Of a stretch of DNA of 64,000 nt, positions 21,714-45,985 are shown in pieces. The DNA comes from an uncultured Planctomycetales bacterium (GTDB taxonomy: Bacteria; Planctomycetota; Planctomycetia; Isosphaerales; Isosphaeraceae): the NCBI GenBank assembly GCA_937907525.1, contig CALCIB010000187.1, positions 390-64,389 on the forward strand. The letters run 5' to 3'. A program made the translations under genes and the position numbers. Each line of letters opens with the position of its first letter. The first letter of the stretch is position 1. The notes beneath the pieces were generated by a model, which worked only from the letters and a program-made list of their open reading frames with translations, had not been told where the DNA came from and did not search any database.

Positions 21714-22313
21714 ATGGGAACCACGAAGAGCAATCGAGTCGGCGACGTGATCCGGGCTTTCCGCGACGATGAATGGCTCCGACTCCACGAGGAGGAGGGT
21801 AAGTCGATCGTCGAACTCGCCGAGGAGGCGGGGATGAGCGTCCGGCACGTCAAAAGGTCGCTGTCCCAGGCACGCAAGGCACGAGAATCCCGGATCAGGG
21901 ACGGGGGCGACGCCTCATCGTCCTTGGCCCTGGGCGGCGACGCCTTGGAGTCGGAGTCCGGCGCGATCCGAGCGCCAGCGTGGCTGGAGTTGGTCCCTCT
22001 GTTCCCAGTCGGACCTTTCACCCCGGCGTCGGAATGTCCGCATCGCGGGCCAATCCCCGAGGGCTCGCTCCTCTGCTGCATGGTCTGCTCGGCCTCTGGG
22101 GTGGACGGTCATCCCGCCCTGGCTCGAAACCCGGCGACTGACCCGCGCCCCGAGCCGAAACCCCGACGTTCGCGACGATCGAGCGCGACGAGGCCCGAGG
22201 AAGCCGGCGAGGCCGAGTCGAAGCCCGAGACCCGCCGCAAGCGGCGTTCCCGAGTCTTCGGATCAGGATCGCCGGCCGCGGACGCAAACGTGACCGATCA
22301 AAATTCCCATTAA
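21714..22313 (+). CDS. Putative DNA-binding regulator (HTH-like N-terminus, Cys-rich C-terminal part), 199 aa
   Basis: AGGAGG SD; GKSIVELAEEAGMSVRHVKRSL resembles an HTH; CPHRGPIPEGSLLCCMVCSASG. Confidence 0.6.
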   Translation: MGTTKSNRVGDVIRAFRDDEWLRLHEEEGKSIVELAEEAGMSVRHVKRSLSQARKARESRIRDGGDASSSLALGGDALESESGAIRAPAWLELVPLFPVGPFTPASECPHRGPIPEGSLLCCMVCSASGVDGHPALARNPATDPRPEPKPRRSRRSSATRPEEAGEAESKPETRRKRRSRVFGSGSPAADANVTDQNSH

Positions 22314-22410
22314 TCCAGGAACGGCGATCAACCTTGCCGTATTCGGGATATCACACGCACCCCATCCCGCATGCGACGACCCCGGTCATGCCATCTCAGC
22401 GATGCGAATC

Positions 22411-22710
22411 ATGGCATTCAAGCCGTCGAGGCCGTTGGCGGAGGCGCGCCCGCGCGAATGGGGTCGCATGCGCCGACCGGGCCCCGGTTCGCGGCGAGAA
22501 CGCTCTCGGAGCATTGGAGCCGACATCTGGCAACACGACCCTCCATCGCGTCGGCCTCGCGTACGGATCGATCCGCCCCATCCCTCTCCGTTTCAAGCTC
22601 GCGTCGAAACGATCGGGGGGGAGGACCGGGCGCTCCTGATCGTCCTGATCGTGGCGGCCGTTCTGATGCTCGCATCGGAATCTCTATGGGCGCTCATGCC
22701 CGAGTTTTAA
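22411..22710 (+). CDS. Hypothetical protein with C-terminal transmembrane segment
   Basis: ALLIVLIVAAVLMLA hydrophobic stretch; weak start signal. Confidence 0.4.
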   Translation: MAFKPSRPLAEARPREWGRMRRPGPGSRRERSRSIGADIWQHDPPSRRPRVRIDPPHPSPFQARVETIGGEDRALLIVLIVAAVLMLASESLWALMPEF

Positions 22711-22872
22711 CGCCGTCGAAGTGGTCGCCGAGTCGGGGAGCCCGACACGGGGGCGTCCGTGACACCCGTCGCGACCCCAGGCCCGCGCGGCCGTCGTCGA
22801 CTCGACGCGCCGCCGCCGCCGGCTCCGCAAAGTCGCCCAAGACGCCGAATCGCTGGAAAACAGGTTCACGCC

Positions 22873-23232
22873 ATGAACTACGTCCCGGACGTCTCGCAAA
22901 ACCTCGCGTACCTGGGAGGGCTCGCGGCGACGACCACCGCGCTGATCGCCGAGGCCGTCTCCACGGACCCCGCGGTCGGCGCGGGGTCGTTCCTGCTGGG
23001 GGGCGCCGGCCTGATCGCGGCGATCTCGGCTTTCATGAAGGACTTCTGGATGGATCGTCAGAAGCAACGCGACCACGAGCTGGCGGCGCTTCGGATCCAG
23101 GCGAGGAGCGAGCGGATCGAGGAGATGGTGGAGGCCCTGTTGGCGTGGATGAAGGCCGCGCGATCCGTCGATGCGTCTCTTCCCCCGGTCCCCGACATCG
23201 TTCACCTCCGAGAGAAACCCGATGACGAATAA
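22873..23232 (+). CDS. Small membrane protein, holin-like (119 aa)
   Basis: Two hydrophobic segments (LAYLGGLAATTTALIA; AGSFLLGGAGLIAAISAFM) then a charged helical tail; lies just upstream of the terminase genes. Confidence 0.5.
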   Translation: MNYVPDVSQNLAYLGGLAATTTALIAEAVSTDPAVGAGSFLLGGAGLIAAISAFMKDFWMDRQKQRDHELAALRIQARSERIEEMVEALLAWMKAARSVDASLPPVPDIVHLREKPDDE

Positions 23233-23530
23233 AAGCATCCGCCTCGCGTTCGGGGCGTGGGCGAGGAAGCGTCCCGGCGGCCTTCCAGGGTTCGTCGCGG
23301 CCGTCTGTCTCACGGGGGCGGCCCTCCTGACCTTGTCGAAGACCTTGGGACGTCACGCTCACTCATTCCGTCGTTCGACCTCGATCGCCGACGTCGTTCG
23401 AGCCGAGGAAGGCGAGGTCGAACGGCGATCCGCCGAGGATCGCTGGAGAGTCGAGGTCTCGACGAAGCTGGAGGAACTCCTCGCCCGCGTCCCCGGGTGT
23501 CCCGAGGATTCCGCCTCCAGGTCCAACTAG
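23222..23530 (+). CDS. Single-pass membrane protein (102 aa), possibly lysis-related
   Basis: Overlaps previous stop; basic N-terminus, FVAAVCLTGAALLTL segment, helical C-terminus. Confidence 0.5.
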   Translation: MTNKSIRLAFGAWARKRPGGLPGFVAAVCLTGAALLTLSKTLGRHAHSFRRSTSIADVVRAEEGEVERRSAEDRWRVEVSTKLEELLARVPGCPEDSASRSN

Positions 23531-23547
23531 GTATCCGGAACAACGAC

Positions 23548-23871
23548 ATGATTGGCGACGGAGCCGCGACCAGGACGGTGACGACGACGGCCTCGACGGG
23601 GATCGACGTCGAACGGATCGGTCTCGACGACCGCCTCCGCGAACTCCTCGGCCTCCCGAGCGACGACCCGTCTCGGACTTGGGGAGACAGGGTCGCGGAG
23701 GCGATCGTCGCCGCCGCGGCCAGGGGCGACGCCCGCTCGTGGGGAGTCCTCTTCCGCCGCGCCGGCGCTGGCGCCGCGTCCGAGGCGGCCGGGACGGCCA
23801 TCGACGACGAGACCGCCCGCAGAATCCTGGAGGCCGCCCTTGGACGAGTCGACGATCAATCGCTTGATTAG
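23548..23871 (+). CDS. Putative terminase small subunit (107 aa)
   Basis: Size and position overlapping the large-terminase start; helical; no sequence motif recognised. Confidence 0.45.
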   Translation: MIGDGAATRTVTTTASTGIDVERIGLDDRLRELLGLPSDDPSRTWGDRVAEAIVAAAARGDARSWGVLFRRAGAGAASEAAGTAIDDETARRILEAALGRVDDQSLD

Positions 23872-25420
23872 GTCCGTGCGCGATCGGCGGCCCCGGACGT
23901 TGGACGAACTCCAGGCCTGGATCGAGGCCTTCGTCGGCGTCCGGATCCCGGCGCGGGCCGTCTGTCCCGGCCACTCCTCCCCGCTGGAGATGTTCGCCTC
24001 CCAGGTGCTGGATCGACCGTCTCTGGCGCTTTGGCACGGCCCGAGAGGGAGCGGCAAATCGTTTCTCTCGGCGCTCGACACCCACCTGGCGAGCCGCTTC
24101 AACCCGCGCCACGAAACCCACGTCCTGGGCGGGTCGCGGGCGCAGTCGGAGCAGATCTACCGCGCCCTCAAGGATCTGGTTCTCGAGGGAGCGGGGCCGC
24201 TCGGAAGCGACCGCGACTCGATCCGACGGCTTCTGAAGACGGAGGCGTCCTACGGCAACGGATCGCGGGTGGCGATCCTGTCGGCGAGCCCCACGAGCGT
24301 CCGCGGCCCCCACGTCGCCTCGCTGAAACTGGACGAGGTCGACGAGATCGACCCGGACATCCGCGAGTCGGCGATCGGCATGGCGATGGACCGCCGAGGA
24401 GTCCGGTCGAGCGTCCTGATGACCTCGACCTGGCATCGCCCGGCCGGCCCGATGGCGGATCTCGTCGACCAGGCGTGCGGGGGGGCCTTCCCGATCCACA
24501 CCTTTTGCGCCTTCGAGGTCCTGGAGCGCTGCCCGACCGAGCGGAGCGGCCCGAACCTGGAGAAGTGTCCGGACTGCCCGCTCATGGCCTGGTGCCACGA
24601 GGGCCGCGACGACGACCCTCTGGGCCGCCCCAAGGCCAAGCGAAGCAATGGACATTATTCGATCGACTCCCTGATTCAGAAGGTCCGGGGCGTCTCGCCG
24701 CGGGTCTTCGCCAGCGACTACCTGTGCCGCGGGCCGAAGGTCGACGGCGTCTGGTTCAAGGAGTTCGACGAGTCCCGGAACGTCTCCGAGGAGGCGGAGT
24801 TCGATCCGTCGCTGCCGGTCCACGTCGCGATCGACTCGGGAGTCTTCACGGGAGCCGTGGCGTTCCAGGTCCACCAAGGCTGGGAGTGGGCCGACCCACC
24901 GGAGCCGTCACGAGTCCACGTCTTCGCCGACTATCTGGCGGAGGGCCGCTCGGCCGAGACGTGCGCCCTCGAAATCCGGGAGTTTCTCGATCGGCTCTGC
25001 GGCTCCGCGAAGCGGTTCGTGTCCACCGACTCGGCCGGAGGGGCCAGGAATCCCGTCGGCCCGACGGTGATCTCGGAGTTTCAGAGATGCGGACTCGTCG
25101 GCGACACGGGTTTGCAAACCTGGCCCCGATATCCCGGATGCGTGATCGAGGGGCTGAACTTGATTGAAAGCCTGGTCCGGACGGCCGACGGCCGCCCCCG
25201 GCTGCTCATCCACCCCCGTTGCGCCCAACTCTCCGCGTCGCTCAAGAGCTACGCGAGGGCCCGCCGCGCGGGCCAGTGGATGGACTACCCCGCGGACCCG
25301 CAACACCCCTGGGAAGACCTCGTCGACGCGCTGCGGGGCGGGCTGGGCGTCGCGCTGCCCGAGGGGACGACCCCCGCGGCCCGCCCGCTCCGACGCGCCC
25401 GCGCCGACCGCGTGTTTTAA
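23840..25420 (+). CDS. Phage terminase large subunit
   Basis: Walker A HGPRGSGKS, Walker B LKLDEVDE, coupling motif MTST, RNase H-like nuclease residues (AIDSG, STDSAG, DLVDALR). TTG start uncertain. Confidence 0.88.
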   Translation: MDESTINRLIRSVRDRRPRTLDELQAWIEAFVGVRIPARAVCPGHSSPLEMFASQVLDRPSLALWHGPRGSGKSFLSALDTHLASRFNPRHETHVLGGSRAQSEQIYRALKDLVLEGAGPLGSDRDSIRRLLKTEASYGNGSRVAILSASPTSVRGPHVASLKLDEVDEIDPDIRESAIGMAMDRRGVRSSVLMTSTWHRPAGPMADLVDQACGGAFPIHTFCAFEVLERCPTERSGPNLEKCPDCPLMAWCHEGRDDDPLGRPKAKRSNGHYSIDSLIQKVRGVSPRVFASDYLCRGPKVDGVWFKEFDESRNVSEEAEFDPSLPVHVAIDSGVFTGAVAFQVHQGWEWADPPEPSRVHVFADYLAEGRSAETCALEIREFLDRLCGSAKRFVSTDSAGGARNPVGPTVISEFQRCGLVGDTGLQTWPRYPGCVIEGLNLIESLVRTADGRPRLLIHPRCAQLSASLKSYARARRAGQWMDYPADPQHPWEDLVDALRGGLGVALPEGTTPAARPLRRARADRVF

Positions 25421-25468
25421 ACGGCTTCGCCGCCGCGACATCCCACTTCAGCGGAATCCCACAACGTC

Positions 25469-27070
25469 ATGCTGAACTCGAATACGATCGGCGCGTCGGT
25501 CCATCCGACGTCAGGGGCGGCGATGCCTCGGATAGCCCTGCCGGACGGTCGGCGGTTGGACCGCCCTCATCCCGAATGGCTGGCGCACCATCTCCGCTGG
25601 CGATGGCTGCTCGACTCGTGGGAGGGCGGCGAGGCCTACCGCACCGCCGTCTACGGGTACGACATGCACGGGATGCCCGTGCGGAACCTGGTCCGTCATA
25701 AACGGGAGTACCCGTCGTCCACCGACGCCGGCGCTTATCCCTTGGGCGGGAGGCCGTTCGGCACCGATCCCGCCTATCAGGCGACGGACGACGACTACGA
25801 ACTGCGACGGGCCAGGACGCCGGTCCCGACCTTCGTCTCGGAAGCGGTCGAGGCCCATCTCGCCCGCATCTACAGCCGCGAGGTGCGCCGCGCCGGCCCC
25901 GAGTCGTTGACCTCGTGGTGGCGCGACGTCGACGGTCGGGGGGCTTCGATCGACGATTTCATGTCGAGTTCGGTCGCCCCGCTCCTCCTGGTGCTGGGCC
26001 AGCTCGATCTGATCGTCGATCGTCCGGCCGCCCCCGACGGCGAACCGGTGCGGACCCGCGCCGACGAGATCCGGCTGGGGCTCGACGCCTGCGCGGCCTC
26101 CTACGTTCTCCCGGAAAACATGGTCTGGTGGCGCCTGGACCGCGCCGGACGGTATCTCGAATGCCTCGTTCGAGAGGTCGACGACCGAGGCGGCGTCTCC
26201 TGGCGTCACTGGAACGAGAATATCTGGACGTTGTTCGATGACCGCGGCGAGAAGGTCCGCGGGCCCTTCGAACACGGATACGGCCGCGTCCCGATCATCC
26301 GAGTCTTCGATCGTCGACGGCCGCGCTGCCGGAACATCGGACTTCCCAGGTATGAAAGCATCGCTGAGATCCAGCGCGAGTTTTACAACCGCGACAGCGA
26401 GCTGATCCTCAGCGACACGACGCAGGCGCACCCGCTGCTGCAGGGTCCCGAGGACTACGTGAAGGCCGACGGGGCCGTGCCGATCGGGCCCAACTGGCTG
26501 CTCCCCAAGAAGAAGAACGCCCAAGGGGGGGCGACGACCTACGAGGGGTTCGACGTCATCCGGTTCCCCAAGGAAGGGGCGGACTCCCTGCGGATGAACA
26601 AGGCCGATCTGAGGGACGCCGCCGACCGCGCCGCGCTCTTGTTGAAGCCCGCCGGATCGGCGGGGACGAGCGGGTCGACCGTGGCCCAGAGCGGGATCTC
26701 GAAGCGGATCGACCAGGCGGCGGGCAACGACCTCTTGAGCAAGATCGCCGCGACGCTGGGCGGGATAGAGCGCCGTCTGGCCGATTTGGCGCTGGCCGTC
26801 ATGGGGGCCGATCCGACGGCCGAGGATCGCGAGGCGATCCGCGTGCAGTATCCGTCGTCCTTCGACCTATACACCGGGGAAGAGTTGGCTCGCGCGGTCG
26901 GTCAATTCCAGACCGTGCTGGGCGCCGCGGGCCACGCCCCCAAGACGGAGCGGGAGATGCTCGGCAAACTCGTCCGAGTGATGCTCCCGGGGCTGGACGA
27001 CTCGGACTACGGCGAATTCGACGTCGAGATCGAGACGTACCTCGGTCTCGACGCGGAGACTCGGGCTTGA
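25469..27070 (+). CDS. Phage portal protein, 533 aa
   Basis: Directly after TerL; portal size; HGYGRVPIIRV, YNRDSELILS, AQSGISKRID motifs resemble SPP1/DUF4055-type portals. Confidence 0.75.
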   Translation: MLNSNTIGASVHPTSGAAMPRIALPDGRRLDRPHPEWLAHHLRWRWLLDSWEGGEAYRTAVYGYDMHGMPVRNLVRHKREYPSSTDAGAYPLGGRPFGTDPAYQATDDDYELRRARTPVPTFVSEAVEAHLARIYSREVRRAGPESLTSWWRDVDGRGASIDDFMSSSVAPLLLVLGQLDLIVDRPAAPDGEPVRTRADEIRLGLDACAASYVLPENMVWWRLDRAGRYLECLVREVDDRGGVSWRHWNENIWTLFDDRGEKVRGPFEHGYGRVPIIRVFDRRRPRCRNIGLPRYESIAEIQREFYNRDSELILSDTTQAHPLLQGPEDYVKADGAVPIGPNWLLPKKKNAQGGATTYEGFDVIRFPKEGADSLRMNKADLRDAADRAALLLKPAGSAGTSGSTVAQSGISKRIDQAAGNDLLSKIAATLGGIERRLADLALAVMGADPTAEDREAIRVQYPSSFDLYTGEELARAVGQFQTVLGAAGHAPKTEREMLGKLVRVMLPGLDDSDYGEFDVEIETYLGLDAETRA

Positions 27071-27140: not shown

Positions 27141-27806
27141 GTGAACGATCAAGCGAGCGTCGACGTCGCTCCGGACGCGGCCGATCAGTCCGGCCCGTCG
27201 CGGGGCGAGGAGCGTCAGCGGTTGCGGGCCCTGGAGGCCCAACTGTCGGACGTCCGACGCCAGCAGGACGCGGCGTTGGAGATGAAGGATCAGGAGCGTC
27301 TGCGGGCCCTGGCCGAGAAGGGTCAGATCGAGGAGGCGCTTGAGCAGCAGCGCCGGACCTGGGAGCGGAAGCACGCCGAGGCGGTCTCCCGATACACGCT
27401 TTTGGAACAGCAGGTCTTCGGCGAGAGAAAATCGGCCGCGATCGCCGACGCCCTCCAGGGTCGGGCGTTCGTCGGCGAAACGTCGGAGCAGCGTTCGGCC
27501 GCCGCGGCGATGGTCCGTCGACTTCTCCAGGACGAGTTCGAGACGGTTCGAGAGGCGTCGGGCGCGCTCGTGGTCCGCGAGCGGTCCAGCGGTCGTCCGG
27601 CCGGAGAGGCCCTCCGCGAGCGCCTCGACTCGCCGCAGTTCGCGATCTTCTTCGCGGCGACGTCGCGTGGGGGGGCGGGCGGCGACGCCTCGCGACCGTA
27701 CGCCGCCCCGAGAGGGGCCCAGCCGGGATCGCTCGAGGCGATCGTCGACCAGTGGAGAGACCGGCAAAACCAGTACCAGTCGTTCGGGCTGCACCCGCTG
27801 GTGTGA
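27141..27806 (+). CDS. Capsid scaffolding protein, 221 aa
   Basis: Coiled-coil E/Q/R-rich sequence between portal and capsid; C-terminal FFAATSRGGAGG linker. Confidence 0.7.
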   Translation: MNDQASVDVAPDAADQSGPSRGEERQRLRALEAQLSDVRRQQDAALEMKDQERLRALAEKGQIEEALEQQRRTWERKHAEAVSRYTLLEQQVFGERKSAAIADALQGRAFVGETSEQRSAAAAMVRRLLQDEFETVREASGALVVRERSSGRPAGEALRERLDSPQFAIFFAATSRGGAGGDASRPYAAPRGAQPGSLEAIVDQWRDRQNQYQSFGLHPLV

Positions 27807-27874: not shown

Positions 27875-29011
27875 ATGCCCTCGTATGAGAACAGCCCGCT
27901 GACCCAGTTCAACGCCTTCAGCGCCGGCGTCCTGCCCAACGACGTCTTCGGCGTGGCGATCAACTGGTTCGTCAACCGGACCCCGCTGACGTCGCGGCTG
28001 CCGAAGCTGCCGGTCGGATCGCCCCACTTCCTGATCGTCAACGACAACTATCGACCTCGCTCGGTGGCGTTGAACGCAGCCCTGACGGCCGCCGCGACGT
28101 CGCTGACCGCCGCGGACGCCTCGGTGTTCGACTCGGGAGACGTCATCCAGGTCGAGCAGGAGTACCTGCTGGTGACGGCCGTGGATCCATCGACGAACAC
28201 CGTGACGGTGGCCCGAGGCTACGCGGGCACGACGGCGGCCGCGCACGCCAACGCCCAGCCCATCTTCCTGGTGAGCAACACGCGGACCGGCGCCGAGACG
28301 AACGTCTCCGGCCTCAGCCGGATCCCCCAGGCGACCACTCAGTATTGCCAGACGGTGCAGCACGCCTACCAGGTCGGCGGGGCGCTGCAGGCCGACGCCA
28401 ACTACGGCTCGGCCTACGCGACTCCGCTCGACCGCGACCGGATGCTGGCGATGCAGCACGTCATGGACGACTTCGAGTCGGCGGTGTATTACGGCAAGGG
28501 GGTCGGCCTGTCCAGCCCGTCGAGCCGGCCGCTGATGAAGGGGATTCAGTCGCTCCTGTCGACCAACAACGTCACTTCGCCGACGAACGCGGCGGCGTAC
28601 AAGCCGAGCGACCTGATCCGCGACACCATCCAGGCGTGCTTCAACGGCGGCGGCAACCCCAGCCTGCTTTTGGTCAGCACGGACTTCCTGTCGGCCTTCG
28701 CCGTCTGGGGTCACGCCGCGATGCGGGTCAACGCCGGGAGCAACGTCTTCGGCGTGCCGATCGATCTGTTCGAGGCCCCGTTCCTTTCCGGCATCTCCAT
28801 CGTGCCGGCGCCGCTGCTGCGCCCGGGCACGGCGGTCTGCCTCTCGGCCAGCGAGGCACGGGTGCGGTTGAAGCGGTCGATGATCGACAAGCCGCGCGGC
28901 AGCCGCGGCGACGCCTTCGAGGGCGACATCATCATGGAGGGCGCCGTCGAGATCGACAACGAGGCGCATCACGCCTGGGTCTCCGGGATCTCGGCCTTCA
29001 GCGCCGCCTGA
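27875..29011 (+). CDS. Major capsid protein (HK97 fold, DUF5309/SU10-like), 378 aa
   Basis: TQYCQTVQHAYQVGG, MDDFESAVYYG, RPLMKGIQSLL and RGDAFEGDIIMEGAVEIDNE resemble the DUF5309 pattern; follows the scaffold gene. Confidence 0.8.
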   Translation: MPSYENSPLTQFNAFSAGVLPNDVFGVAINWFVNRTPLTSRLPKLPVGSPHFLIVNDNYRPRSVALNAALTAAATSLTAADASVFDSGDVIQVEQEYLLVTAVDPSTNTVTVARGYAGTTAAAHANAQPIFLVSNTRTGAETNVSGLSRIPQATTQYCQTVQHAYQVGGALQADANYGSAYATPLDRDRMLAMQHVMDDFESAVYYGKGVGLSSPSSRPLMKGIQSLLSTNNVTSPTNAAAYKPSDLIRDTIQACFNGGGNPSLLLVSTDFLSAFAVWGHAAMRVNAGSNVFGVPIDLFEAPFLSGISIVPAPLLRPGTAVCLSASEARVRLKRSMIDKPRGSRGDAFEGDIIMEGAVEIDNEAHHAWVSGISAFSAA

Positions 29012-29083: not shown

Positions 29084-29452
29084 ATGAGCACAACTCGTTC
29101 CTTCACGTTCCCCGGCTTGTGGCCTTATATCGAACGCGCGGCCGAGGGGCGGCGCCTTCCGTTCCTGGGCCGCGGGCGTGAGCTGTGGCATTACAAGCAG
29201 GTCCAGGACGCGCTGGGCCAACTCCCCGGCCTCGCCGCGAGCGATCGGCGCGAGTCGTTGGCCCACGTCGCGGCGGTGCGGGACTCGCTCGCCGCGACGC
29301 TCGACGGGATCGACCTGGCCGTGCTGGAGACGGTCCAGGGCCTGGGCGGCGGCGAGTCTCGGGATCCCGCGTGCGGCGCCTCCGAGCCGGCGGAGTCGCA
29401 ACCGCGTCGCGGCCTCGCGGCGCGACGGCGGCGCGACTCCCAAAACGAATAA
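29084..29452 (+). CDS. Hypothetical protein (122 aa)
   Basis: In-operon ORF after capsid gene; no motif recognised. Confidence 0.6.
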   Translation: MSTTRSFTFPGLWPYIERAAEGRRLPFLGRGRELWHYKQVQDALGQLPGLAASDRRESLAHVAAVRDSLAATLDGIDLAVLETVQGLGGGESRDPACGASEPAESQPRRGLAARRRRDSQNE

Positions 29453-29478: not shown

Positions 29479-30156
29479 ATGAGTCAGTCAGACCGGCTCA
29501 CGATCCTCTACGCCGACGACGAGGACGTCGCGGTCCACGCCCCAGGCGACTTCGCGGTGCTGGCGCCGGCCTGGCAGAAGATCGCCCAGGGCTCCGACGG
29601 CGTTTTCGGGTCCGGCCCTAGCTGGACCCTTGCGTCGGCGACGTCGGACTTCGAGGCGGCCGGGGCCCGACCGGGCCATGTGATCCAATTGCGAAAACCC
29701 ACGTCGGTCTTCAAAGGCGCGGGCGAACTCTTCGCCGTCGAGGGGGCCGTCGGGGGCTCGCTGACGATCCGCCGCGTCGGCATGCCCGCGGGCGCCGGGG
29801 CTCCGCCCGCGCCGGCCTCGGGCCTCTCCGGCGTGGAGTTCGTCATCGCCACCCTGTCGCCGCAGATCGAGGAGGCGAGCTTCGATCTGAACCGTCTGTT
29901 CGCCATCGATCCACTCGCGCCTGGTCGAACGCCCTCGGATCTCCACGACGTTCGGGAACTCCGCCGCGCCTGCGTCCTCGGCGTGCTCGTCCGCCGCTAT
30001 GCGGCCGAGTCGCGCGGCTCCGACGGAGACTTCGCGCAAAAACTCCGACAGGCCGAAGCCGAGTTGGCCGAGGTCCTGGCGCGCCTGGAAGTGCGCTGGG
30101 GGTCGGCCGTCGACCGGTCGTCGTCCTCGATCTTCTCCACACGAATCGTGAGGTGA
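29479..30156 (+). CDS. Putative head-tail adaptor/head completion protein (225 aa)
   Basis: Position after capsid; helical C-terminus (ELRRACVLGVLVRRY...FAQKLRQAEAELAEVL). Confidence 0.45.
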   Translation: MSQSDRLTILYADDEDVAVHAPGDFAVLAPAWQKIAQGSDGVFGSGPSWTLASATSDFEAAGARPGHVIQLRKPTSVFKGAGELFAVEGAVGGSLTIRRVGMPAGAGAPPAPASGLSGVEFVIATLSPQIEEASFDLNRLFAIDPLAPGRTPSDLHDVRELRRACVLGVLVRRYAAESRGSDGDFAQKLRQAEAELAEVLARLEVRWGSAVDRSSSSIFSTRIVR

Positions 30157-32244: not shown

Positions 32245-32253
32245 TGGACCGTC

Positions 32254-33894: not shown

Positions 33895-33935
33895 CGCGAC
33901 CCAACCCATTCGCGCAAGGTTCTTCGGAGGGCCGT

Positions 33936-38126: not shown

Positions 38127-38585
38127 ATGACGCCCACCCACCGCGAGCGCGACGTCCGCGACGCGATCCAGGAACTCTTGGATTCGACCCGCGCGTTTGA
38201 TCGGATCCATTCCGGCGCCCCGCCCGACGCCGGCGGCGAATCGTCCGGAGCTCGGCGATCCGCCTCGATCGAACCGAATGGGACCGTCGTGGCGGGGCAA
38301 GGCGACGACGTCGGCGGCGCGTTGAAAGCGACCGCCACCGTCACGCTCGTCCTACTCGCCCGCGACGACGATCCCACCGTCCGCGACGCCGCGGCCGAGA
38401 CGCTCTTGAACACCGCGGCCGCGGCCTTGAACGGTCGTTCCCTGGGCGGAATCACGCTGCCGGGGTCGACGCGGCTCCGCTCGTGGACGTGGCGCAAAGC
38501 CACTCCGCCCGAGCGCCGCATCGAGGCGATCCTGGAGTTCCAGTACTTGCTGGAAGGCTGGAACGACTTCGACATCTCGGAATGA
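38127..38585 (+). CDS. Putative tail terminator/completion protein (152 aa)
   Basis: Size and position immediately before the tube gene; VRDAIQELL start, alpha/beta pattern. Confidence 0.5.
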   Translation: MTPTHRERDVRDAIQELLDSTRAFDRIHSGAPPDAGGESSGARRSASIEPNGTVVAGQGDDVGGALKATATVTLVLLARDDDPTVRDAAAETLLNTAAAALNGRSLGGITLPGSTRLRSWTWRKATPPERRIEAILEFQYLLEGWNDFDISE

Positions 38586-38634: not shown

Positions 38635-39051
38635 ATGGCCGCGACCAAGCTCCAGTCGAACTGGACGGCTGTTTCTTTCAACTCGGCCCCGATCTCTCGG
38701 GTGACGCAAGTGAGCTTCACCCAGGGGGGGACCCTTACGACCTACGCGGCCGACGGCGACCATTTCCCCACGGTCATCGTCAATACGATGAGCAAGCCCA
38801 AGGCGACCGTCGCCAGCGGCGACGTCGCGGCCCTCATGGCGATCGCGCCCGGGGTCTCTGGGACCTTCAGCGCGACCCACAAGGACGCCAAGGGGGAGGC
38901 CGGCGGAGACATCCTCTACGTCCTGGCCAACGCGGTGGCCGAAAACTCCGAGACCTCGGGGGCCCACGGCGAGTTCGGGACCGCGACCCTCACCCTCATG
39001 GCCTACTCCTCCGACGGAACCACCAACCCGCTCAGCTTCACCAGGGCTTGA
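38635..39051 (+). CDS. Putative major tail tube protein (138 aa)
   Basis: AGGAGG SD; small T/S/G/A-rich beta protein upstream of a frameshifting chaperone gene. Confidence 0.6.
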   Translation: MAATKLQSNWTAVSFNSAPISRVTQVSFTQGGTLTTYAADGDHFPTVIVNTMSKPKATVASGDVAALMAIAPGVSGTFSATHKDAKGEAGGDILYVLANAVAENSETSGAHGEFGTATLTLMAYSSDGTTNPLSFTRA

Positions 39052-39108: not shown

Positions 39109-39414
39109 ATGGAAGCCATGCCAATCGACGCGTTGATCGTTCCCGAGTCGTGGAAGAGCGGCGGCACGCAACTGGACCGGATCGACTCGATCCTCCGCGT
39201 GGCGGAACCCCTGCTGGGGGTGGACCGCTCGCGCGGGCAAAGGGCCTACATCCGCCGCCAACCGGGAGGCCGCCTCTTCATCACGACGGACCCCCGCGAC
39301 ACGATCTCCTTTCCGATCGGACACCCGCGCGAGGGTCGTCCCCGCTACACCTGGACCGCGGCCCCCGACGGCTCGGAACGCGGATCCCTGGTCGAGGAGG
39401 CTCGCGATGCTTGA
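39109..39414 (+). CDS. Hypothetical protein (101 aa)
   Basis: In-operon ORF whose stop overlaps the next start. Confidence 0.55.
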   Translation: MEAMPIDALIVPESWKSGGTQLDRIDSILRVAEPLLGVDRSRGQRAYIRRQPGGRLFITTDPRDTISFPIGHPREGRPRYTWTAAPDGSERGSLVEEARDA

Positions 39415-39820
39415 CGAGCGGGCGCTCCGCCGAACGAAGTTCTCCCCGGGGCCGGAGGTGACCCTCGGGGACGGAGGGAAATGGTCGCTCCCGACGCCGA
39501 GCCTGCGCCTGTTCCCCCTCAGGGGCGAGGACGGCCGAATCACGGTCGGCGGCGGCCCCAGCTTCGGCGCCGAATATGAGGCGCTGATGGACGATCTGGC
39601 CGATTGCGACCCCGAGGACGCGACCGGTCGTTTGACCATTCAGTTCCGGATGGCGGCCATGCTGCTGACGCGCAACTACGACCTTGCCGATCGCGACCTC
39701 CGTGAACTACTCGTCATCGACGCCGAGGATCCCGAGTGCCGCGAGCGCTGGCGGGAAATCAACCGGGTCATGACGGGCCGCGCCCCAAAACGTTTAGCCG
39801 ATGGCTCCGCTGCACCCTGA
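39407..39820 (+). CDS. Tail assembly chaperone (gpG-like), 137 aa
   Basis: GAGGAGG SD; position after tube gene; slippery heptamer near the 3' end. Confidence 0.65.
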   Translation: MLDERALRRTKFSPGPEVTLGDGGKWSLPTPSLRLFPLRGEDGRITVGGGPSFGAEYEALMDDLADCDPEDATGRLTIQFRMAAMLLTRNYDLADRDLRELLVIDAEDPECRERWREINRVMTGRAPKRLADGSAAP

Positions 39821-39997: not shown

Positions 39998-40792
39998 ATG
40001 GGCCTCGACGAGTTTCTCATCCCTCAAGAGTCCTCACCGGCGACGGACCCAGGGCCGCTCGGCGATCTTGACGAAGTCCTCCTGGCGCCGCCCATGGGAC
40101 TCGACGCCCCGGAAGAGCCGGCGGGGTCGGGGATCGCCGCTCCTTTGAAAACCGCTCTGATCGAGTCGCCGCCCACGAACGACGGACGCGAGGCCGCGAT
40201 GCCAAGCCGCGCCTCGGAGTCGGCCCCCTCGTTGGCGGACGTGATCGTCGCCGCGCCTTCCACGGACGAGGAGCGCGTGGGAACGGTCAAACCCGCCGGG
40301 CCGGAGTCGATCCGCCTTGGCGATCCGAAGCCCCGCGACGCGCGACCGTCCCCCCCGGCCCTCGAGACCTCGGGAAAGTCATGGGAGTTCCTCGCGACGG
40401 CCTGGGATTCCGCTCCTCCTCCCTCCAGCGGGGACGTCGGCCGGATCGATGACGAATTCGTCTCGACGTCGCCCTTGACTCGGGTCGACTGGGGCGCGAT
40501 CGCACCGGCGAACTCCATCTCGACCATTCCAGGGCGTCGGACGGAGGCCTCTCCCTCCCGTTCCATGGCTTCCATCGCTCGTTGGGACGACGGCTTCTCG
40601 GCGCCGACGGACTTCGGGAAGCCCCTGGACGGCCCGGTCGACGGCCCCGATTTCGAGAACGACCTCGACGGGCTCGGAGAGCGACTGTCACGGATCGTGG
40701 ATCGTCTGGAACGAACCGTGGAGCGATTCGCCCCCCCGTCGACCCCGCTCGGCGCGCGGCCCCGGCCGTTCCGCGGCCGGATCGACGGCTGA
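39998..40792 (+). CDS. Pro/Ser-rich protein in the tape-measure position (264 aa)
   Basis: Follows chaperone; acidic Pro-rich body with C-terminal amphipathic helix LGERLSRIVDRLERTVERF. Confidence 0.55.
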   Translation: MGLDEFLIPQESSPATDPGPLGDLDEVLLAPPMGLDAPEEPAGSGIAAPLKTALIESPPTNDGREAAMPSRASESAPSLADVIVAAPSTDEERVGTVKPAGPESIRLGDPKPRDARPSPPALETSGKSWEFLATAWDSAPPPSSGDVGRIDDEFVSTSPLTRVDWGAIAPANSISTIPGRRTEASPSRSMASIARWDDGFSAPTDFGKPLDGPVDGPDFENDLDGLGERLSRIVDRLERTVERFAPPSTPLGARPRPFRGRIDG

Positions 40793-40810
40793 CCCCGAAC
40801 GAGAGATGCG

Positions 40811-41182
40811 ATGGTCACATTCAACGGCGAGAACATATTCGGGTCGGCCGTGCGGCTCCAGCACGTCGCGCGTCCCAGGGCCCAACAGGTCGTCGCCTTC
40901 TTCGGCGTCAGCGGGACTCAAGTCCTGGACGGCGGCGGCCGGGGGCGGGCCTTCTTCATCCGCGGGGTGCTCACCGCCCCGACGCTCGAGGGCCTCAACG
41001 CGATGGAGGCCAGGTTCCACGACTACGCCGACGGAACCGCCCGCGTCCTCGTCGACAACCGCGGTCGCGCGTGGTCGAACGTCGTCTTCAGGGGCGAGTT
41101 CGTTCCGGACCCGCGAGGCGCGGTCCCCGCGGGATCCGGTTGGGCCCTCCCGTACCGCGCCGTGTTTCACGGCCTGACATGA
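40811..41182 (+). CDS. Putative distal tail protein (123 aa)
   Basis: Position after the tape-measure slot; beta-rich small protein. Confidence 0.45.
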   Translation: MVTFNGENIFGSAVRLQHVARPRAQQVVAFFGVSGTQVLDGGGRGRAFFIRGVLTAPTLEGLNAMEARFHDYADGTARVLVDNRGRAWSNVVFRGEFVPDPRGAVPAGSGWALPYRAVFHGLT

Positions 41183-41213
41183 ACCGCCTCGTCCCCCGCG
41201 CGAGTCCCATTCC

Positions 41214-41909
41214 ATGCCATTCGACCAAGCATCGATCGTCGAAATGAAACCACCTAGATGGGACGGCGCGGCGCTGCAATTGTCGTGGGTCTCGACCGCG
41301 CCCGCCGGAACGACCTTCCAGGTCTACGTCGGCCGCCGCCTGGCCTGGTACGGGACGAACCGTTGGGTCGCCCTGACGATGCCGGACTCCCGAGTCCGGA
41401 TCGACGTCGGCGCGGTCGGCCCCGGCGAGGCGACGGTCGACTTCTCGTCGACGCTTCCGCCGGCCCCCGGAGACCGCGTGACGCTTACTTGGCTCGGCGG
41501 TTCGTACCTGGACCCGGAGGGCGGCGACGACGTCCAGGGCTTTCACGTCTTCGGTTCCAGGCGCGCCGGCTGGGACGTCGACTACACCGAGCCTCTGGCC
41601 GAGATTCCAGCCTATCCCGGCGGGTCGCCGATCGACGGATTCGGAATCGGCGGCTTCGGTCAAGGGGGATTCGGCCGGGCCGCGTCGACTTACCGCTGGA
41701 CGAGCGCCGCGCTCGGATCCGGGACGTGGACCTTCGCGGTCGTCCCGTTCGACGCGGTTGGAAACCAGGGGCCGGGGACGACCATGACGACGACCGTCGT
41801 CGCTCCTCCCCGCCCCCCGGCGGCCGACTCGGACGGCACTCGACTTCGATGCACGTACAACCCGGAGACGCGCCAGGCGACGCTCTCCTGGAACCCCAGC
41901 CCCGCCTGA
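41214..41909 (+). CDS. FN3-like tail-associated protein (231 aa)
   Basis: LQLSW, TFQVY, VTLTW, WTFAVVPFDAVGN; GFGIGGFGQGGFG loop. Confidence 0.6.
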   Translation: MPFDQASIVEMKPPRWDGAALQLSWVSTAPAGTTFQVYVGRRLAWYGTNRWVALTMPDSRVRIDVGAVGPGEATVDFSSTLPPAPGDRVTLTWLGGSYLDPEGGDDVQGFHVFGSRRAGWDVDYTEPLAEIPAYPGGSPIDGFGIGGFGQGGFGRAASTYRWTSAALGSGTWTFAVVPFDAVGNQGPGTTMTTTVVAPPRPPAADSDGTRLRCTYNPETRQATLSWNPSPA

Positions 41910-41928
41910 TACAGGAAACCGTCCGTTC

Positions 41929-42720
41929 ATGGCGACCACATACACTCCGCGGGCGAAGCTAGCCAAGCCGGGCCCGGCCGATCGCGAGTGGAACGTCCCG
42001 CTCAACGCCAACTCAGACGCCCTCGACGCTCTGTCCCCGATCGGAGGCCTCTGCGTCTCGCCGGCCGAATCCCCCAGCGCGACCCTTCGGATCCAGATCG
42101 CCGCCGGGCGGTTTCAACGTCGAGACGGCACGGTCGGGACGTTCGACGGATCGACCTCGTTCGCGCTCCTGGCTGATTCGAATTCATACGTCTACTTGAC
42201 CGACTCCGGCGACCTGACCGCCTCGTCCGCCGGATTCCCGGCCACGTCCCACGTGCCGCTCGCCATCGCGACCACGGGCGCCTCGGCCGTCACGGGCGTC
42301 GCGGACGTCCGGGTCGTGTGCGGGACGGTCGGCAACGATTCCAGACCCTTCCTGACCGCCGCCGGCGGCGCGATGAGCGACGGAGCGGCCTTCGCCGCCG
42401 GGTCGTCCTCCGGCCTCAAGATCGGCACATCGGCCTCCCAGAAGCTTGGGTTCTGGAACGCCGCCCCCGTCGCCCGGCCGGGAACCTATTCCCAGGGGTA
42501 CGCCGCCTCCTCTCGAAGCCTGGCGGCCTATACCCCGGCGCCCGCGTCGGCTCCGTTCGCGGGCGTGGGCCCGGGCCAGACGGGATCCCCTTACGCCCAA
42601 GTCTCCGATCTCAACACTCTCAGGACGTCGTATGAAAACCTGAGGCTGTTTTCCGAGAACGCGACCCAACTCCTCAACGCCCTCGTCAACGACCTGAAGG
42701 CGATGGGGCTGATCGGCTGA
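41929..42720 (+). CDS. Phage fibre protein (263 aa)
   Basis: N-terminal TPRAKLAKPG...WNVPLNANSDALD resembles fibre-attachment motifs; C-terminal LLNALVNDLKAMGLI resembles fibre trimerisation ends. Confidence 0.6.
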   Translation: MATTYTPRAKLAKPGPADREWNVPLNANSDALDALSPIGGLCVSPAESPSATLRIQIAAGRFQRRDGTVGTFDGSTSFALLADSNSYVYLTDSGDLTASSAGFPATSHVPLAIATTGASAVTGVADVRVVCGTVGNDSRPFLTAAGGAMSDGAAFAAGSSSGLKIGTSASQKLGFWNAAPVARPGTYSQGYAASSRSLAAYTPAPASAPFAGVGPGQTGSPYAQVSDLNTLRTSYENLRLFSENATQLLNALVNDLKAMGLIG

Positions 42721-42742
42721 CCGCCGCGAGAGGACGCACGGC

Positions 42743-44863
42743 ATGCCCCCGAGCTTCGATTTCGATCCGTACGAAGTCCCATTGTCAAGTCCGGCCGCGA
42801 CGGTCCAAGTCTGCCGGTACGATCCGGAGGTCGAAGTCGGGGCCGCGTTCGCGGCGCTCCCGAACGTGATCTGCGAGCGGATCCGCCACGCGGAAGGCCC
42901 CGAGCCGCCGACGGCCTGGTTCCGCTACGTCCTCGACGACGCCGCCCCCTCCGATCCCGCTCCGTTCGACTTCGGTCGGTTATGGCCCCAGAGCGCCGCG
43001 GGCCCTTACGTCGTCAGAAACGACGACCGTCTCGTCGTCCTGGTCCGCGGCGCCCACGGCGAATCCCACGTCCTGTTCGACGGGTTCGCACAGACGTCCC
43101 AGATCGATCTGGAACCTCATTCCCAGCGAGTCTCCTTCCTCGCGGTGGGAGTCGCGATCCGGTGCTGGGACGAACCGATCGGCGGACGTCTCCAGCGCCA
43201 CGCCGACGCCACGGAGGACGGCGACGCGGTCCTAGTCCAACTCCCAGCCCGTTTCAACCCCGACGGAAGGCCGAACTGCACTCCGGACGGAGCCGACGTC
43301 GAACGATCCGACGCCTCGGCACGCCACCCCGCGTTCCTGGATCCGGACCTTGATCGCGACCCCGACCCCAGGACCTACTGGACCCTGGGGAAGTTCGTCC
43401 GCTACGTCCTCGCGGTACACAACGATCAGGCCGTCGTGAAGAACCCGGACTTCGATCTCCTGGACGCCCTCCTCCAGTCCAAGGGACCGGCGCCGGGCGC
43501 GAACCCTCTCGGGCGGGGCACGGCCGCCGACGTGGTCGTCCGCGACTACGACGCGACGAACAAGCCATGGCCCGAGGCCCTCGCCGAGCAACTGGAACTC
43601 ACGGGGTTCGGAATGCGGTTCGTCACGGCCGAGGACGACGACGGCTCGCCGCGCACCGACCTGGAGGTCTACCGAAAGGACGCGGACGCCGGCGGCCCGC
43701 TCCGCGACTTGCTCCTGTCAAAAGCCGGGTCCGGCCTCAATCCCGCGCGCTGCAACGTCGCGTCTCTGCATCTCCGTCGAGACTTCCGCTCGATCGTGAA
43801 CGCGGTGACGGTCGAAACGGCCCAGCGTCGCGTCGAGGCGTCGTTCGTGCTGGCCCCCGGCTTCACTCCTTCCGCGGGCGACGAGTCGGCCGGCCAACGG
43901 GTCCGATTCCTTCGATCCAACCTCGCCGCGGCCGCCGGGGAAGACGATCGGAAATATCGATACTACGTCGCCGACGAGGCGGGCGACGGCCATTGGGACG
44001 CAGAGACGGCCTCCTGGTCGGAGTCCGCCCTGGACCTTGGAGCCCTGTTCCCGGACGACGAGGAAGGCAACCCCACTTACGTCAGGAGACTGCGGCCCGG
44101 CTCGACCCTTCTGGCGACCCGGGACGCGGAGGGCCGCCCGCTGCGGGCTCAACTCGCTCTGTCCCGCGACTACGCGGGGCCGACGCCGGGCTTGTGGGAC
44201 GGGACGGGCCACTGGCAGCCGATCGATGGCGGCTGGCGACTCCTGGAAGATCGGCTCGGCATTCACGTCGTGGCCGAAGATCCCGAGGCATGGGCGATCG
44301 GCGACTACACCGGCGACCATCCGCAAGAGCCCAGCAAGACCCTCCGAGGAGTAACCAGCCAGGCGAATCCGTCAGAGCCGAACGCACGCTTCGTCCTGCG
44401 CCTGACGACCGTGATCGAGGACGATCTCATGATCCCGGCTTCGGTCGAGTCGAGACCGGCGTCGCCGACTTCGTTCACCCGCCGACGAAGAGTGGACGCC
44501 CGCGACCATTTCGCCCTGGAGACGGTCGCGGCGCGGTCGCTGCACAATCCCGGATCCGAGTCTCAGACCGCGAGGGACGACACCGACCGGGCCGTCGCCT
44601 GGGCGCGCCAACTCCGCGCGGCCCACGAAATGCCGCCGACGGTCGGTTCGGCGACGCTCCCCGGCCTCGTCACCGCGTACAGGGTCGGCGACCGAGTCGC
44701 CCGGATCGACGGTCGCGACGTGGCGCTCCAGACCAACGTCGGCGAGGGCCAGGGCGAAGCCCCGGTCTACCCCACGATCTCGGCCGTCTCATGGGACTTT
44801 TCCGAGGACCGCCAGTCGACCGTCATCGAACTCACCGACGCCGACGTCGAACGCGGCGCCTGA
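42743..44863 (+). CDS. Putative baseplate hub/tail tip protein (706 aa)
   Basis: Size and position; YRVGDRVARIDG...ISAVSWDF...STVIEL C-terminus resembles hub proteins. Confidence 0.55.
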   Translation: MPPSFDFDPYEVPLSSPAATVQVCRYDPEVEVGAAFAALPNVICERIRHAEGPEPPTAWFRYVLDDAAPSDPAPFDFGRLWPQSAAGPYVVRNDDRLVVLVRGAHGESHVLFDGFAQTSQIDLEPHSQRVSFLAVGVAIRCWDEPIGGRLQRHADATEDGDAVLVQLPARFNPDGRPNCTPDGADVERSDASARHPAFLDPDLDRDPDPRTYWTLGKFVRYVLAVHNDQAVVKNPDFDLLDALLQSKGPAPGANPLGRGTAADVVVRDYDATNKPWPEALAEQLELTGFGMRFVTAEDDDGSPRTDLEVYRKDADAGGPLRDLLLSKAGSGLNPARCNVASLHLRRDFRSIVNAVTVETAQRRVEASFVLAPGFTPSAGDESAGQRVRFLRSNLAAAAGEDDRKYRYYVADEAGDGHWDAETASWSESALDLGALFPDDEEGNPTYVRRLRPGSTLLATRDAEGRPLRAQLALSRDYAGPTPGLWDGTGHWQPIDGGWRLLEDRLGIHVVAEDPEAWAIGDYTGDHPQEPSKTLRGVTSQANPSEPNARFVLRLTTVIEDDLMIPASVESRPASPTSFTRRRRVDARDHFALETVAARSLHNPGSESQTARDDTDRAVAWARQLRAAHEMPPTVGSATLPGLVTAYRVGDRVARIDGRDVALQTNVGEGQGEAPVYPTISAVSWDFSEDRQSTVIELTDADVERGA

Positions 44864-44884
44864 CTCCTCGCCCGGGGACCCCTC

Positions 44885-45211
44885 ATGTCCGACGCACGAA
44901 TCATGCGCGAGCGGCAGGAAACCGCGGCCTCCGCGATCCAGCGACTGTCTCCCTCCAGCCAAAACGGCTCGGAGGCGATGGTGGCGCGGACCAAGGTCCG
45001 CGGGACCTACCCCGCGGTCGCCTCCGCCTTCTACGCCTGCGGCCCCTTGCGAATCGACGGTCCCGAGACCGAGGGCGCGGCGGTGACGTTCACCGAGGAC
45101 CTCTCACGCACGATCATGGCGTTGAACGTCGGCTCCAAGGTCCCGCCGGTCGGCACGAAGTTGATCATCCATTCCAGCGGCGGTCGTTGGACGTTCCGCT
45201 ACGACGGTTGA
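44885..45211 (+). CDS. Hypothetical tail-tip protein (108 aa)
   Basis: In operon; paralogous to the N-terminal half of the next gene. Confidence 0.6.
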   Translation: MSDARIMRERQETAASAIQRLSPSSQNGSEAMVARTKVRGTYPAVASAFYACGPLRIDGPETEGAAVTFTEDLSRTIMALNVGSKVPPVGTKLIIHSSGGRWTFRYDG

Positions 45212-45256
45212 GCCTCCCGCGCCAAGGAACTTCTCCTCCCTACCGTTGGGTGTCCG

Positions 45257-45985
45257 ATGCCGAAAGACCCTCTCCGCCTGCTGCGTCTGAGGTGGGACGA
45301 CCTTCTGGGGCCCAACCCTCGGCACGGCCGTATCCCTCGTCTCGACCCGGACGCGCCCCCGTCCCCCGGCGCTCCAGGCTTCATCGGCCGCGTTCGAGAC
45401 GAGGGGGCGATTCCTCCCGCCGGCGAGCGAGTATTCCTCGCGAGCCCGGTAAGATTCGACGGGATCGACGCCGAGGGATCCGGCGCGGACCTCTCGACCG
45501 ACGAGTCGCGGTCGATTCCCGTCGTCGTGGTGGGCTCCCGAGCCCCCAAGGCGGGCGATCTGATCATCGTCCACGCATCCGGCGGTCGATGGGTGTCGGA
45601 GATCGGCGGCCCGCCGAAGACCGTGGCGTGCGGCGGATGCGAGGCGCCTCGTCAGAACCTCACCCTGACCTGGACGAACGGCATCCAGGGGGTCCAATCG
45701 TCTCCGATGACGTTCAACGGCCTCGACGAATGGAAGACGGGGTGTATCAACCAGATCGTTTTCCGGCTGTCCTGCCGAGCGGACGCGACGACGTTCTCGG
45801 CCGACCAGTACGCCGACGGATCTTGCCCGACCGGCCAGCCGACGACCTGCTCCAGTTCGGGATCGCCCTCGCCCGGGATGACGTTGACGATTCAGTCGTG
45901 CGACCCCTTCCTGCTTCAGTTCGCCCCGACCTCCTGTCCAGCCATTTCATCGCTTGGATACACGCGGTTCACCATCACGCGGTAA
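45257..45985 (+). CDS. Hypothetical tail-tip protein with Cys-rich C-terminal domain (242 aa)
   Basis: N-terminal half similar to 44885-45211; C-terminus with several Cys. Confidence 0.6.
   Translation: MPKDPLRLLRLRWDDLLGPNPRHGRIPRLDPDAPPSPGAPGFIGRVRDEGAIPPAGERVFLASPVRFDGIDAEGSGADLSTDESRSIPVVVVGSRAPKAGDLIIVHASGGRWVSEIGGPPKTVACGGCEAPRQNLTLTWTNGIQGVQSSPMTFNGLDEWKTGCINQIVFRLSCRADATTFSADQYADGSCPTGQPTTCSSSGSPSPGMTLTIQSCDPFLLQFAPTSCPAISSLGYTRFTITR

Follow-up and report, generated by a model that had tools for sequence, protein, structure and literature searches.

The 64,000-nucleotide stretch of contig CALCIB010000187.1 analysed here (the window), from an uncultured Planctomycetales bacterium of the family Isosphaeraceae and derived from a wastewater or bioreactor metagenome, contains a 29-kb block of genes that encodes a complete tailed-virus particle without genes for integration or self-replication. 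Because the particle genes are complete, the integration machinery is absent, the chromosomal sites are fixed, and inheritance appears to be vertical under purifying selection, we favor a domesticated origin. Specifically, the element is probably an ancient siphovirus-derived, DNA-packaging tailed particle that is maintained by its host and fixed in the Isosphaeraceae chromosome, in the manner of a gene transfer agent (GTA) or of PBSX rather than as a mobile prophage (probability roughly 0.55). The locus is a strong candidate for a host-owned particle such as a GTA.

The window has a GC content of about 70%, and raw lists of open reading frames (ORFs) are consequently full of spurious frames; coding frames were resolved by a frame plot of third-position GC (GC3). 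The plot shows a single plus-strand run of about 30 genes between positions 21714 and 50698, tightly packed or overlapping and with coding-type GC3 (Table 1). This agrees with the uninterrupted, often overlapping ORFs described in an earlier note on this DNA, as does the placement of a block of host-like GC among cellular genes. Upstream are uvrA (14586-21389) and genes for an FAD monooxygenase, a DUF1559 protein, a GH116 protein and a sulfatase, and downstream are genes for a beta-lactamase-fold protein, BamA, GTP cyclohydrolase I (FolE) and endonuclease III (EndoIII). The right boundary had been placed at 45985, which is wrong. The genes following g25 keep their order in related genomes even where the surrounding chromosome differs, and the element therefore runs to approximately 50698.

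The particle genes were identified with the Pfam and PHROGs profile libraries, and with AlphaFold2 (AF2) models built from homologue alignments and compared by Foldseek with the PDB and BFVD. In the head module, the translation of the large terminase (TerL, g05) contains both Walker A (GPRGSGKS) and Walker B (LKLDEVDE) motifs, and the major capsid protein (g08) clears the gathering threshold of PF17236 and is thus a member of that family; it has 597 homologues, with the 120 listed spanning 306-393 residues and mostly 376-386. Because Pfam and PHROGs failed to recognise the tail genes, two of these (g16 and g23) were modelled. The g16 model returns tube and Hcp-fold proteins only from the PDB and mostly siphovirus major tail proteins from BFVD; its sequence profile gives chance-level matches in the PDB, and its homologues (120 listed) are nearly all 137-138 residues long, with a few of 133-159. 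The g23 model matches gp27, Mu gp44, Tal and VgrG hubs, spikes of extracellular contractile injection systems (eCIS), MuSo2, and the tail tips of Bxb1 and Douge. A contractile tail was considered, as the hub and tube models also match eCIS and myovirus proteins, and was rejected because the sheath gene is absent: as previously described, neither a sheath family (Pfam, PHROGs) nor a sheath-sized gene adjoins the tube gene. The tail is of the long non-contractile siphovirus type, with tube and hub present, sheath absent, and a tape measure that is degenerate.

That a short tape-measure slot lies between the tube and hub genes is borne out by g19, which is derived from a tape measure. Its C-terminal helix aligns with the C-terminus of the helical 769-residue tape measure of a prophage on plasmid pPOT-2 (E = 1e-4 with the strain SH-PL62 orthologue and 0.003 with the window copy), and it keeps the conserved ends of a tape measure while containing 14% proline and evolving with a ratio of nonsynonymous to synonymous substitution rates (dN/dS) of 0.67. 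For the siphovirus gene order as a whole, TerL, portal, scaffold, capsid, tube, tape-measure slot and hub are identified, but the adaptor and terminator labels once given to g09-g11 and g15 are positional only.

The block does not have the features of an integrated temperate prophage, namely a recombinase at one end, attachment (att) repeats and a repressor. By Pfam and PHROGs, neither the cluster nor its flanks (1-21389 and 50787-64000) contain an integrase or a replication family, there is no recognisable repressor in the locus, and the window contains no tRNA, no direct repeats bracketing the block and no iterons. The lack of an integrase, tRNA target and att repeats had been noted before, and it extends to annotated relatives: the gene tables of Aquisphaera giovannonii and strain SH-PL62 list no integrase next to the cluster ends. 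Among 40 Pfam families in 86 flank ORFs from about 20 related loci, an integrase is not one of the 25 most frequent; a single one could be hidden.

Species-representative genomes were scanned with the portal, the capsid protein and g23, giving about 60 loci, nearly all in Isosphaeraceae or unclassified Planctomycetota, and protein searches add Paludisphaera borealis, P. mucosa, P. rhizosphaerae, strain SH-PL62 and A. giovannonii. About 45 related loci, again with Isosphaeraceae or Planctomycetota as the label of nearly all, support a domesticated element. The cluster starts at the same uvrA junction in four Paludisphaera-like genomes: the window, metagenome-assembled genome (MAG) 71-10, MAG_CPA_03 and P. 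soli. A right flank that consists of a PEP-CTERM gene, in most cases followed by a gene for peptidase M32, is shared by A. giovannonii, A. insulae, SH-PL62 and several MAGs. The synteny that the earlier note asked about is therefore found at these two kinds of site, with no sign of it in Gemmataceae, all named matches being Isosphaeraceae.

The window copy is smaller than many of its relatives. The absence of endolysin and replication genes remarked on earlier is genuine for the window, but these are secondary losses, with many relatives keeping a P4-family primase/helicase and a candidate lysis pair. In loci L001-L004 and A. giovannonii an intact gene for a 299-residue protein and another for a 152-residue membrane-anchored partner lie between g01 and g02. 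The larger protein has Cys and His motifs, and its sole family hint is Peptidase_C39_2 at E = 0.19; its PDB sequence search is at chance level, and neither protein gives anything usable in Pfam at relaxed E-values. Together with the adjacent small membrane proteins the two may form a lysis cassette. At this site the window has a deletion of about 1.3 kb, and an independent contig of public run X1 reads across the junction without a mismatch. At least 13 orthologous loci, including those of P. soli and SH-PL62, have two extra genes 3′ of the sigma factor gene. The first encodes a protein of about 265 residues that is primase-like by motif only (its PDB sequence search is at chance level), and the second a P4-family primase/helicase of 620-700 residues (TIGR01613, 5.5e-40). 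Neither gene is present in the window, in its two closest relatives or in either Aquisphaera species. Because the candidate lysis pair has been lost as well, the window copy is a reduced derivative, without either the primase/helicase pair or the candidate lysin.

The particle genes have nonetheless diverged under constraint. Between the window and MAG 71-10, dN/dS (Nei-Gojobori) is 0.13 for TerL, 0.09 for the portal, 0.12 for the scaffold, 0.105 for the capsid, 0.064 for the tube and 0.13 for the hub, compared with 0.165 for uvrA. Overall it is 0.11 for head genes and 0.17 for tail genes, with the core particle genes at 0.06-0.2, and on the window's own branch it is about 0.105 for head genes, 0.18 for tail genes and 0.21 for uvrA. 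The branch-specific values exclude a relaxation of selection following loss of the lysis pair. Pairwise synonymous divergence (dS) among the three closest genomes, concatenated, is 0.49-0.56 for head genes and 0.47-0.48 for uvrA, such that the element co-diverges with its host in a comparison of pairwise dS, not of trees. Codon usage likewise matches that of the host, with a correlation in relative synonymous codon usage of r = 0.983 between element and host genes against 0.990 between two halves of the host set. The checks of selection, co-divergence and codon usage that had been suggested for this locus thus all came out as expected of a resident element. As read from these sequences, the values support long vertical inheritance under purifying selection that appears as strong as on neighbouring housekeeping genes, and the divergence and codon data fit neither a recently integrated nor a freely decaying prophage.

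These values bear directly on whether the block is simply a cryptic prophage remnant, without function, decaying slowly and kept by low deletion rates in large planctomycete genomes. We regard this as unlikely. Neutral decay would have introduced stop codons and frameshifts, yet all 24 particle ORFs (about 24 kb) are intact at dS of about 0.5, and dS exceeds 1 in comparison with Aquisphaera; dN/dS of the core genes is at or below that of uvrA, on the window branch too; and codon bias is stronger in the capsid gene (GC3 0.94, dS just 0.24) than anywhere else in the region. Decay is nevertheless visible in places, including the loss of two gene pairs from the window copy, the degenerating tape measure, a P. 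mucosa copy disrupted by insertion sequence (IS) elements, and a degraded copy at locus L017.

A second alternative, that this is a still-autonomous temperate phage which repeatedly targets the same sites through an unconventional form of integration or maintenance, would account for the P4-family primase/helicase, lysis-like genes, sigma factor and GtrB-like moron of the fuller relatives, and distant relatives are indeed true prophages with an integrase. It is nonetheless very improbable. Besides the missing recombinase, att repeats and tRNA described above, divergence of the element tracks that of host genes gene by gene, and its codon usage is fully ameliorated. Contig depth within the element (12.6-13.6) equals that of the flanks (11.5-14.9), with no excision joint seen. 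The portal is at most 27% identical to that of any cultured phage, and it alone gave matches (24-27% identity) in a search of a cultured-phage database.

The element carries genes for its own regulation. Regulatory genes had been presumed to lie elsewhere in the chromosome; instead, a helix-turn-helix (HTH) gene (g01) and a sigma factor gene are part of the conserved locus. g01 is the first gene of the element, is kept at the left end of the cluster in relatives, and has a conserved Cys-rich C-terminal half. It had been labelled tentatively as a small terminase (TerS), but its relationship to sigma-70 region 4 makes a candidate activator or regulator the more likely assignment. In this genome the sigma factor gene closes the element, and it stays with the cluster where the flanks differ. 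It is preceded by genes for a pentapeptide-repeat protein and g28c, and this trio, which follows the tail genes in about 20 related genomes, could be a control unit of the sigma and anti-sigma type. The two upstream members are fused in SH-PL62. A minus-strand ORF at 49127-49900 was rejected as a gene, being the shadow of plus-strand g28c.

The large fibre-like genes g12-g14 do not follow the tail genes at the end of the cluster, as had been thought, but sit between the head and tail modules. The g12 N-terminus is beta-helix-like and the g13 C-terminus fn3-like, and all three evolve rapidly, with the nearest relative, a sister species, at merely 40-57% identity. Such diversification is expected for targeting specificity, and together with an own sigma factor in the locus, as PBSX has in Xpf, it is among the observations that would suit a particle kept by the host for a purpose other than transfer (as a PBSX-like killer, or in kin discrimination or defence), with packaging either incidental or serving head assembly only. 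The evidence for domestication applies equally to this explanation. We consider it doubtful all the same, as the tail is non-contractile, no lytic or toxin domain is detected in the hub or tip (Pfam, PHROGs, and Foldseek of the hub), and TerL and portal are among the most constrained genes (dN/dS 0.09-0.13), which suggests that packaging itself matters.

Several observations weigh against a domesticated DNA-packaging particle. First, the particle, its DNA content and any transfer are predicted from genes, and sequence does not reveal head capacity, which in a GTA is too small for the locus. Second, the window copy is without the candidate lysin, and its proline-rich, fast-evolving tape measure raises doubt about normal tail assembly. 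Third, at least 13 relatives keep the P4-family primase/helicase, and these fuller forms may be able to amplify their own DNA. Fourth, retention is not universal: in P. mucosa, IS elements interrupt the right end of the copy, after the glycosyltransferase gene, and in L017, a 9-kb contig of MAG_CPA_03, fragments of the capsid gene, g10, g12 and g11 lie side by side at 7679-8856. These fragments are what is left of a second copy or, alternatively, the contig belongs to a different strain that was binned with this MAG. Finally, RNA evidence comes from relatives. Contigs of an activated-sludge metatranscriptome match TerL, portal, scaffold, capsid, g10, g11, g15-g18 and g21 at about 82-94% identity, and related clusters therefore seem to be transcribed in situ; carry-over of DNA is possible.

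If the element does act as a domesticated DNA-packaging particle, the gene content suggests the following course. Its own HTH protein and sigma factor would activate the single-strand operon, probably in only some cells of a population, and headful packaging by TerS and TerL would fill the heads. As excision is not available to the element, the heads would contain host chromosome, taken either at random or starting from the locus. The small membrane proteins and the peptidase (lost in this genome) would release the particles, and the fast-evolving g12-g14 proteins would bind cells of the same lineage.

A more specific proposal, which we put forward tentatively, is that this is a family-wide GTA-like system of the Isosphaeraceae, of independent origin and the first in Planctomycetota: a siphovirus locked into the chromosome and driven by its sigma factor. 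In its fuller form a P4-type primase/helicase would amplify the chromosome in situ, with headful export of neighbouring host DNA as in lateral transduction, and the window, having since shed or relocated its replication and lysis functions, would represent a later stage.

Table 1. Genes and gene remnants of the particle locus, with window coordinates and the basis of each assignment.
Gene	Position	Strand	Assignment	Basis
g01	21714-22313	+	HTH protein related to sigma-70 region 4	Pfam Sigma70_r4_2 4.6e-5 (below cut-off); phrog_836 late transcriptional activator 1.6e-3
remnant	22395-22532	+	C-terminal 47 codons of the 299-residue candidate Cys/His peptidase gene	tblastn E 8e-4
g02	22873-23232	+	Small membrane protein, holin-like by topology alone	Hydrophobic segments in translation
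g03	23222-23530	+	Small protein, one transmembrane segment	Translation; 41-51% identity in relatives
g04	23548-23871	+	Candidate small terminase (107 residues)	Position only; overlaps TerL start by 32 nt
g05	23840-25420	+	Large terminase (TerL)	phrog_2 1.7e-13 and four other TerL phrogs
g06	25469-27070	+	Portal	phrog_145 2.1e-36
g07	27141-27806	+	Head scaffold	phrog_206 3.7e-8
g08	27875-29011	+	Major capsid protein, SU10/DUF5309 family	PF17236 SU10_MCP 5e-42, 144.8 bits vs cut-off 24.1
g09, g10, g11	29084-29452, 29479-30156, 30164-30619	+	Head-completion or head-fibre-anchor candidates	Position
g12, g13, g14	30733-38060 (g14 33936-38060, 1374 residues)	+	Fibre or receptor-binding candidates	Weak tail-fibre phrogs for g12
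g15	38127-38585	+	Tail terminator/completion candidate	Position; directly upstream of tube gene in 22 loci
g16	38635-39051	+	Tail tube (major tail) protein	AF2 model (138 residues, pLDDT 70) and Foldseek
g17, g18	39109-39820	+	Tail assembly chaperone candidates	Position; translationally coupled ORFs
g19	39998-40792	+	Degenerate tape measure, 264 residues	C-terminal match to tape measure of pPOT-2 prophage
g20, g21, g22	40811-42720	+	Distal-tail/baseplate candidates (g21 with fn3-like region)	Conserved order in about 40 loci
g23	42743-44863	+	Baseplate hub/tail-associated (Tal/gp27-like) protein, 706 residues	AF2 pLDDT 84.7; Foldseek E down to 3e-10
g24, g25	44885-45985	+	Small tail-tip proteins	Follow hub gene in most loci
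	46092-47087	+	GtrB-like family 2 glycosyltransferase	PF00535 2.5e-32; phrog_841 2.4e-92
g27a, g27	47118-47763	+	Small conserved proteins	tblastn synteny
	48372-49130	+	Pentapeptide-repeat protein	PF00805 2e-23
g28c	49130-49645	+	171-residue protein, coupled to pentapeptide-repeat gene	Conserved on + strand in 22 loci
	49691-50698	+	Sigma-70 family factor (RpoD/RpoS-like regions 1.2 and 2)	PF04542 1e-12; phrog_351 3e-30; TIGR02937 74 bits vs cut-off 43

The remaining genes of the head module are assigned with less help from profiles. g02 is conserved in relatives, with dN/dS of 0.13-0.32. g04 is conserved in its C-terminal half and has no family match in Pfam at relaxed E-values. Profile searches of the cluster do not reveal a prohead protease. 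g10 gives nothing usable in Pfam at relaxed E-values, and g11 has weak matches to PF23140 Gp80 (0.009) and to the head protein phrog_240, with type-B relatives (described below) matching Gp80 at 1e-31. At locus L013 of the Planctomycetota MAG RYN_438, related genes for portal, scaffold and capsid (38-57% identity) are combined with a different, T4-type large terminase (Terminase_6N), which indicates that the head module also circulates in mosaic phages.

The capsid protein carries an inserted domain of about 80 residues (residues 62-142; 28058-28300). This domain of about 70-80 residues recurs twice in g14, at 35430-35633 and 36054-36287 (phrog_7578 and phrog_1101), and has a weak PDB match to the capsid of phage VP1. 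Its recurrence suggests a common binding module that may be displayed on both head and fibre. Otherwise g14 gives chance-level matches in a single-sequence PDB search and nothing usable when its N- and C-terminal parts are compared with Pfam at relaxed E-values.

Among the tail genes, g15 has no family or PDB matches in Pfam, PHROGs or a PDB profile search. The chaperone candidates g17 and g18 had been taken for a frameshifting pair, which is unsupported. g18 has its own ATG and lies in the +1 frame, the overlap is ATGCTTGA and recurs in relatives, and a slippery heptamer is absent; a programmed frameshift was accordingly rejected. Profile searches of PDB sequences with g20 and g21 are at chance level, g21 has a weak match to phrog_31, and the pPOT-2 orthologue of g22 carries PF26209 Phage_phiTE_241_C. 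The C-terminal 66 residues of g22 (window residues 198-263) recur in P. soli (L002, 14092-14289) at 65% identity, after g09 at the expected site of g10. From these sequences this suggests that the module has been shuffled between head-proximal and tail proteins.

Between the tail-tip and regulatory genes, g27a gives nothing usable in Pfam at relaxed E-values, and the GtrB-like glycosyltransferase is a variable passenger, present in Paludisphaera-like genomes and absent in Aquisphaera. GtrB-like glycosyltransferases are used by prophages for O-antigen conversion, and by analogy this one could alter the surface of the carrier cell and hence the receptor. Promoter and terminator scans gave results at shuffle level. 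The sole strong terminator-like structure in the region is a perfect 20-bp GC-rich hairpin with a T-rich tail at 52434-52478, 3′ of the beta-lactamase-fold gene. At the other flank, UvrA is an unusual 2267-residue protein with duplicated modules, containing two sets each of UvrA interaction, DNA-binding and ABC domains; its gene has internal DNA repeats spaced 1038 nt apart, and the same long form adjoins the cluster in three related genomes.

Two lineages of cluster can be distinguished. The type-B lineage (L046, L048-L050, L052, L053, L058 and L060) is more compact, has g23 at 36-42% identity, and is without the pentapeptide/g28c/sigma trio. In seven type-B loci a PSP1-domain gene lies 0.4-3 kb past the tail genes on the same strand. 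Both lineages are present in some MAGs, including clean336 (L038 and L051) and clean412 (L040 and L059). A complete type-A block from tail to sigma factor, the latter at 57% identity, is found at L065 in a MAG labelled Alphaproteobacteria (MFD10064.bin.2.25). The contig probably comes from Isosphaeraceae and was placed in the wrong bin, horizontal transfer being the alternative.

Members of the Planctomycetota are unusual in their cell envelope and cell biology, genetic tools for them are few, and hardly any of their phages have been described. To our knowledge just a handful of independently evolved GTAs exist, none of them from this phylum. A literature search turned up no described planctomycete GTA, as the earlier note had supposed, and no conserved phage-like cluster from the phylum; a 2025 review of Planctomycetota mentions phages once. 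A particle locus in cultured genera with complete genomes (Paludisphaera, Aquisphaera and strain SH-PL62) offers a directly testable system, which could serve in studies of how genes move horizontally among these bacteria and perhaps as a tool for delivering DNA.

The element is homologous to none of RcGTA, PBSX or BaGTA, and only functionally comparable features are shared. RcGTA of Rhodobacter capsulatus and the RcGTA-like clusters of Alphaproteobacteria are similar in organization: a chromosomal siphovirus-type head-tail cluster without an integrase, inherited vertically across a large clade under purifying selection, with a short tape measure and fast-evolving attachment proteins. Similarity extends to the tube fold, with 6tba among the Foldseek matches of g16. 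However, no sequence relationship is found, and neither RcGTA-type families nor an HK97-type capsid and protease are matched. The element instead has an SU10/DUF5309 capsid, with a separately encoded scaffold and without a protease; it spans about twice the length, has its regulators within the locus and its fibre genes between the head and tail modules, has relatives that keep a primase/helicase, and has a predicted function. In PBSX of Bacillus subtilis, the sigma-like factor Xpf drives the late genes and particles package host DNA. PBSX resembles the element in being a chromosomally fixed phage-like particle locus that is conserved in a clade and encodes its own sigma factor, but it is a killer particle with a contractile tail and an Xre repressor, whereas the element has neither a sheath nor a recognisable repressor, and there is no sequence similarity. 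In BaGTA of Bartonella the particle genes are linked to phage-derived run-off replication, by which the chromosome is amplified in place. About 13 relatives of the element have a comparable arrangement, with the P4-type primase/helicase adjoining the cluster, but BaGTA has a different phage ancestry, the window does not carry the replication pair, and no origin is identified in the element. The SU10/Kuravirus-type phages share the capsid family PF17236, of which g08 is a member; SU10, however, is a podovirus, whereas a tube, a hub and a tape-measure relic are all encoded here.

Of the true prophages that can be recognised as relatives, the nearest is that of plasmid pPOT-2 of Singulisphaera sp. 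PoT (CP186276), which has homologues of g16-g24 in the same order at 37-49% identity. It differs in having a tyrosine integrase, a Bro-N gene and a full helical tape measure, and in lacking both the pentapeptide/g28c/sigma trio and a conserved chromosomal position, and so shows what the element has lost. An integrase-bearing prophage, a fixed element with primase/helicase and lysis genes, and the reduced window copy form a series that provides a rare view of the steps of phage domestication.

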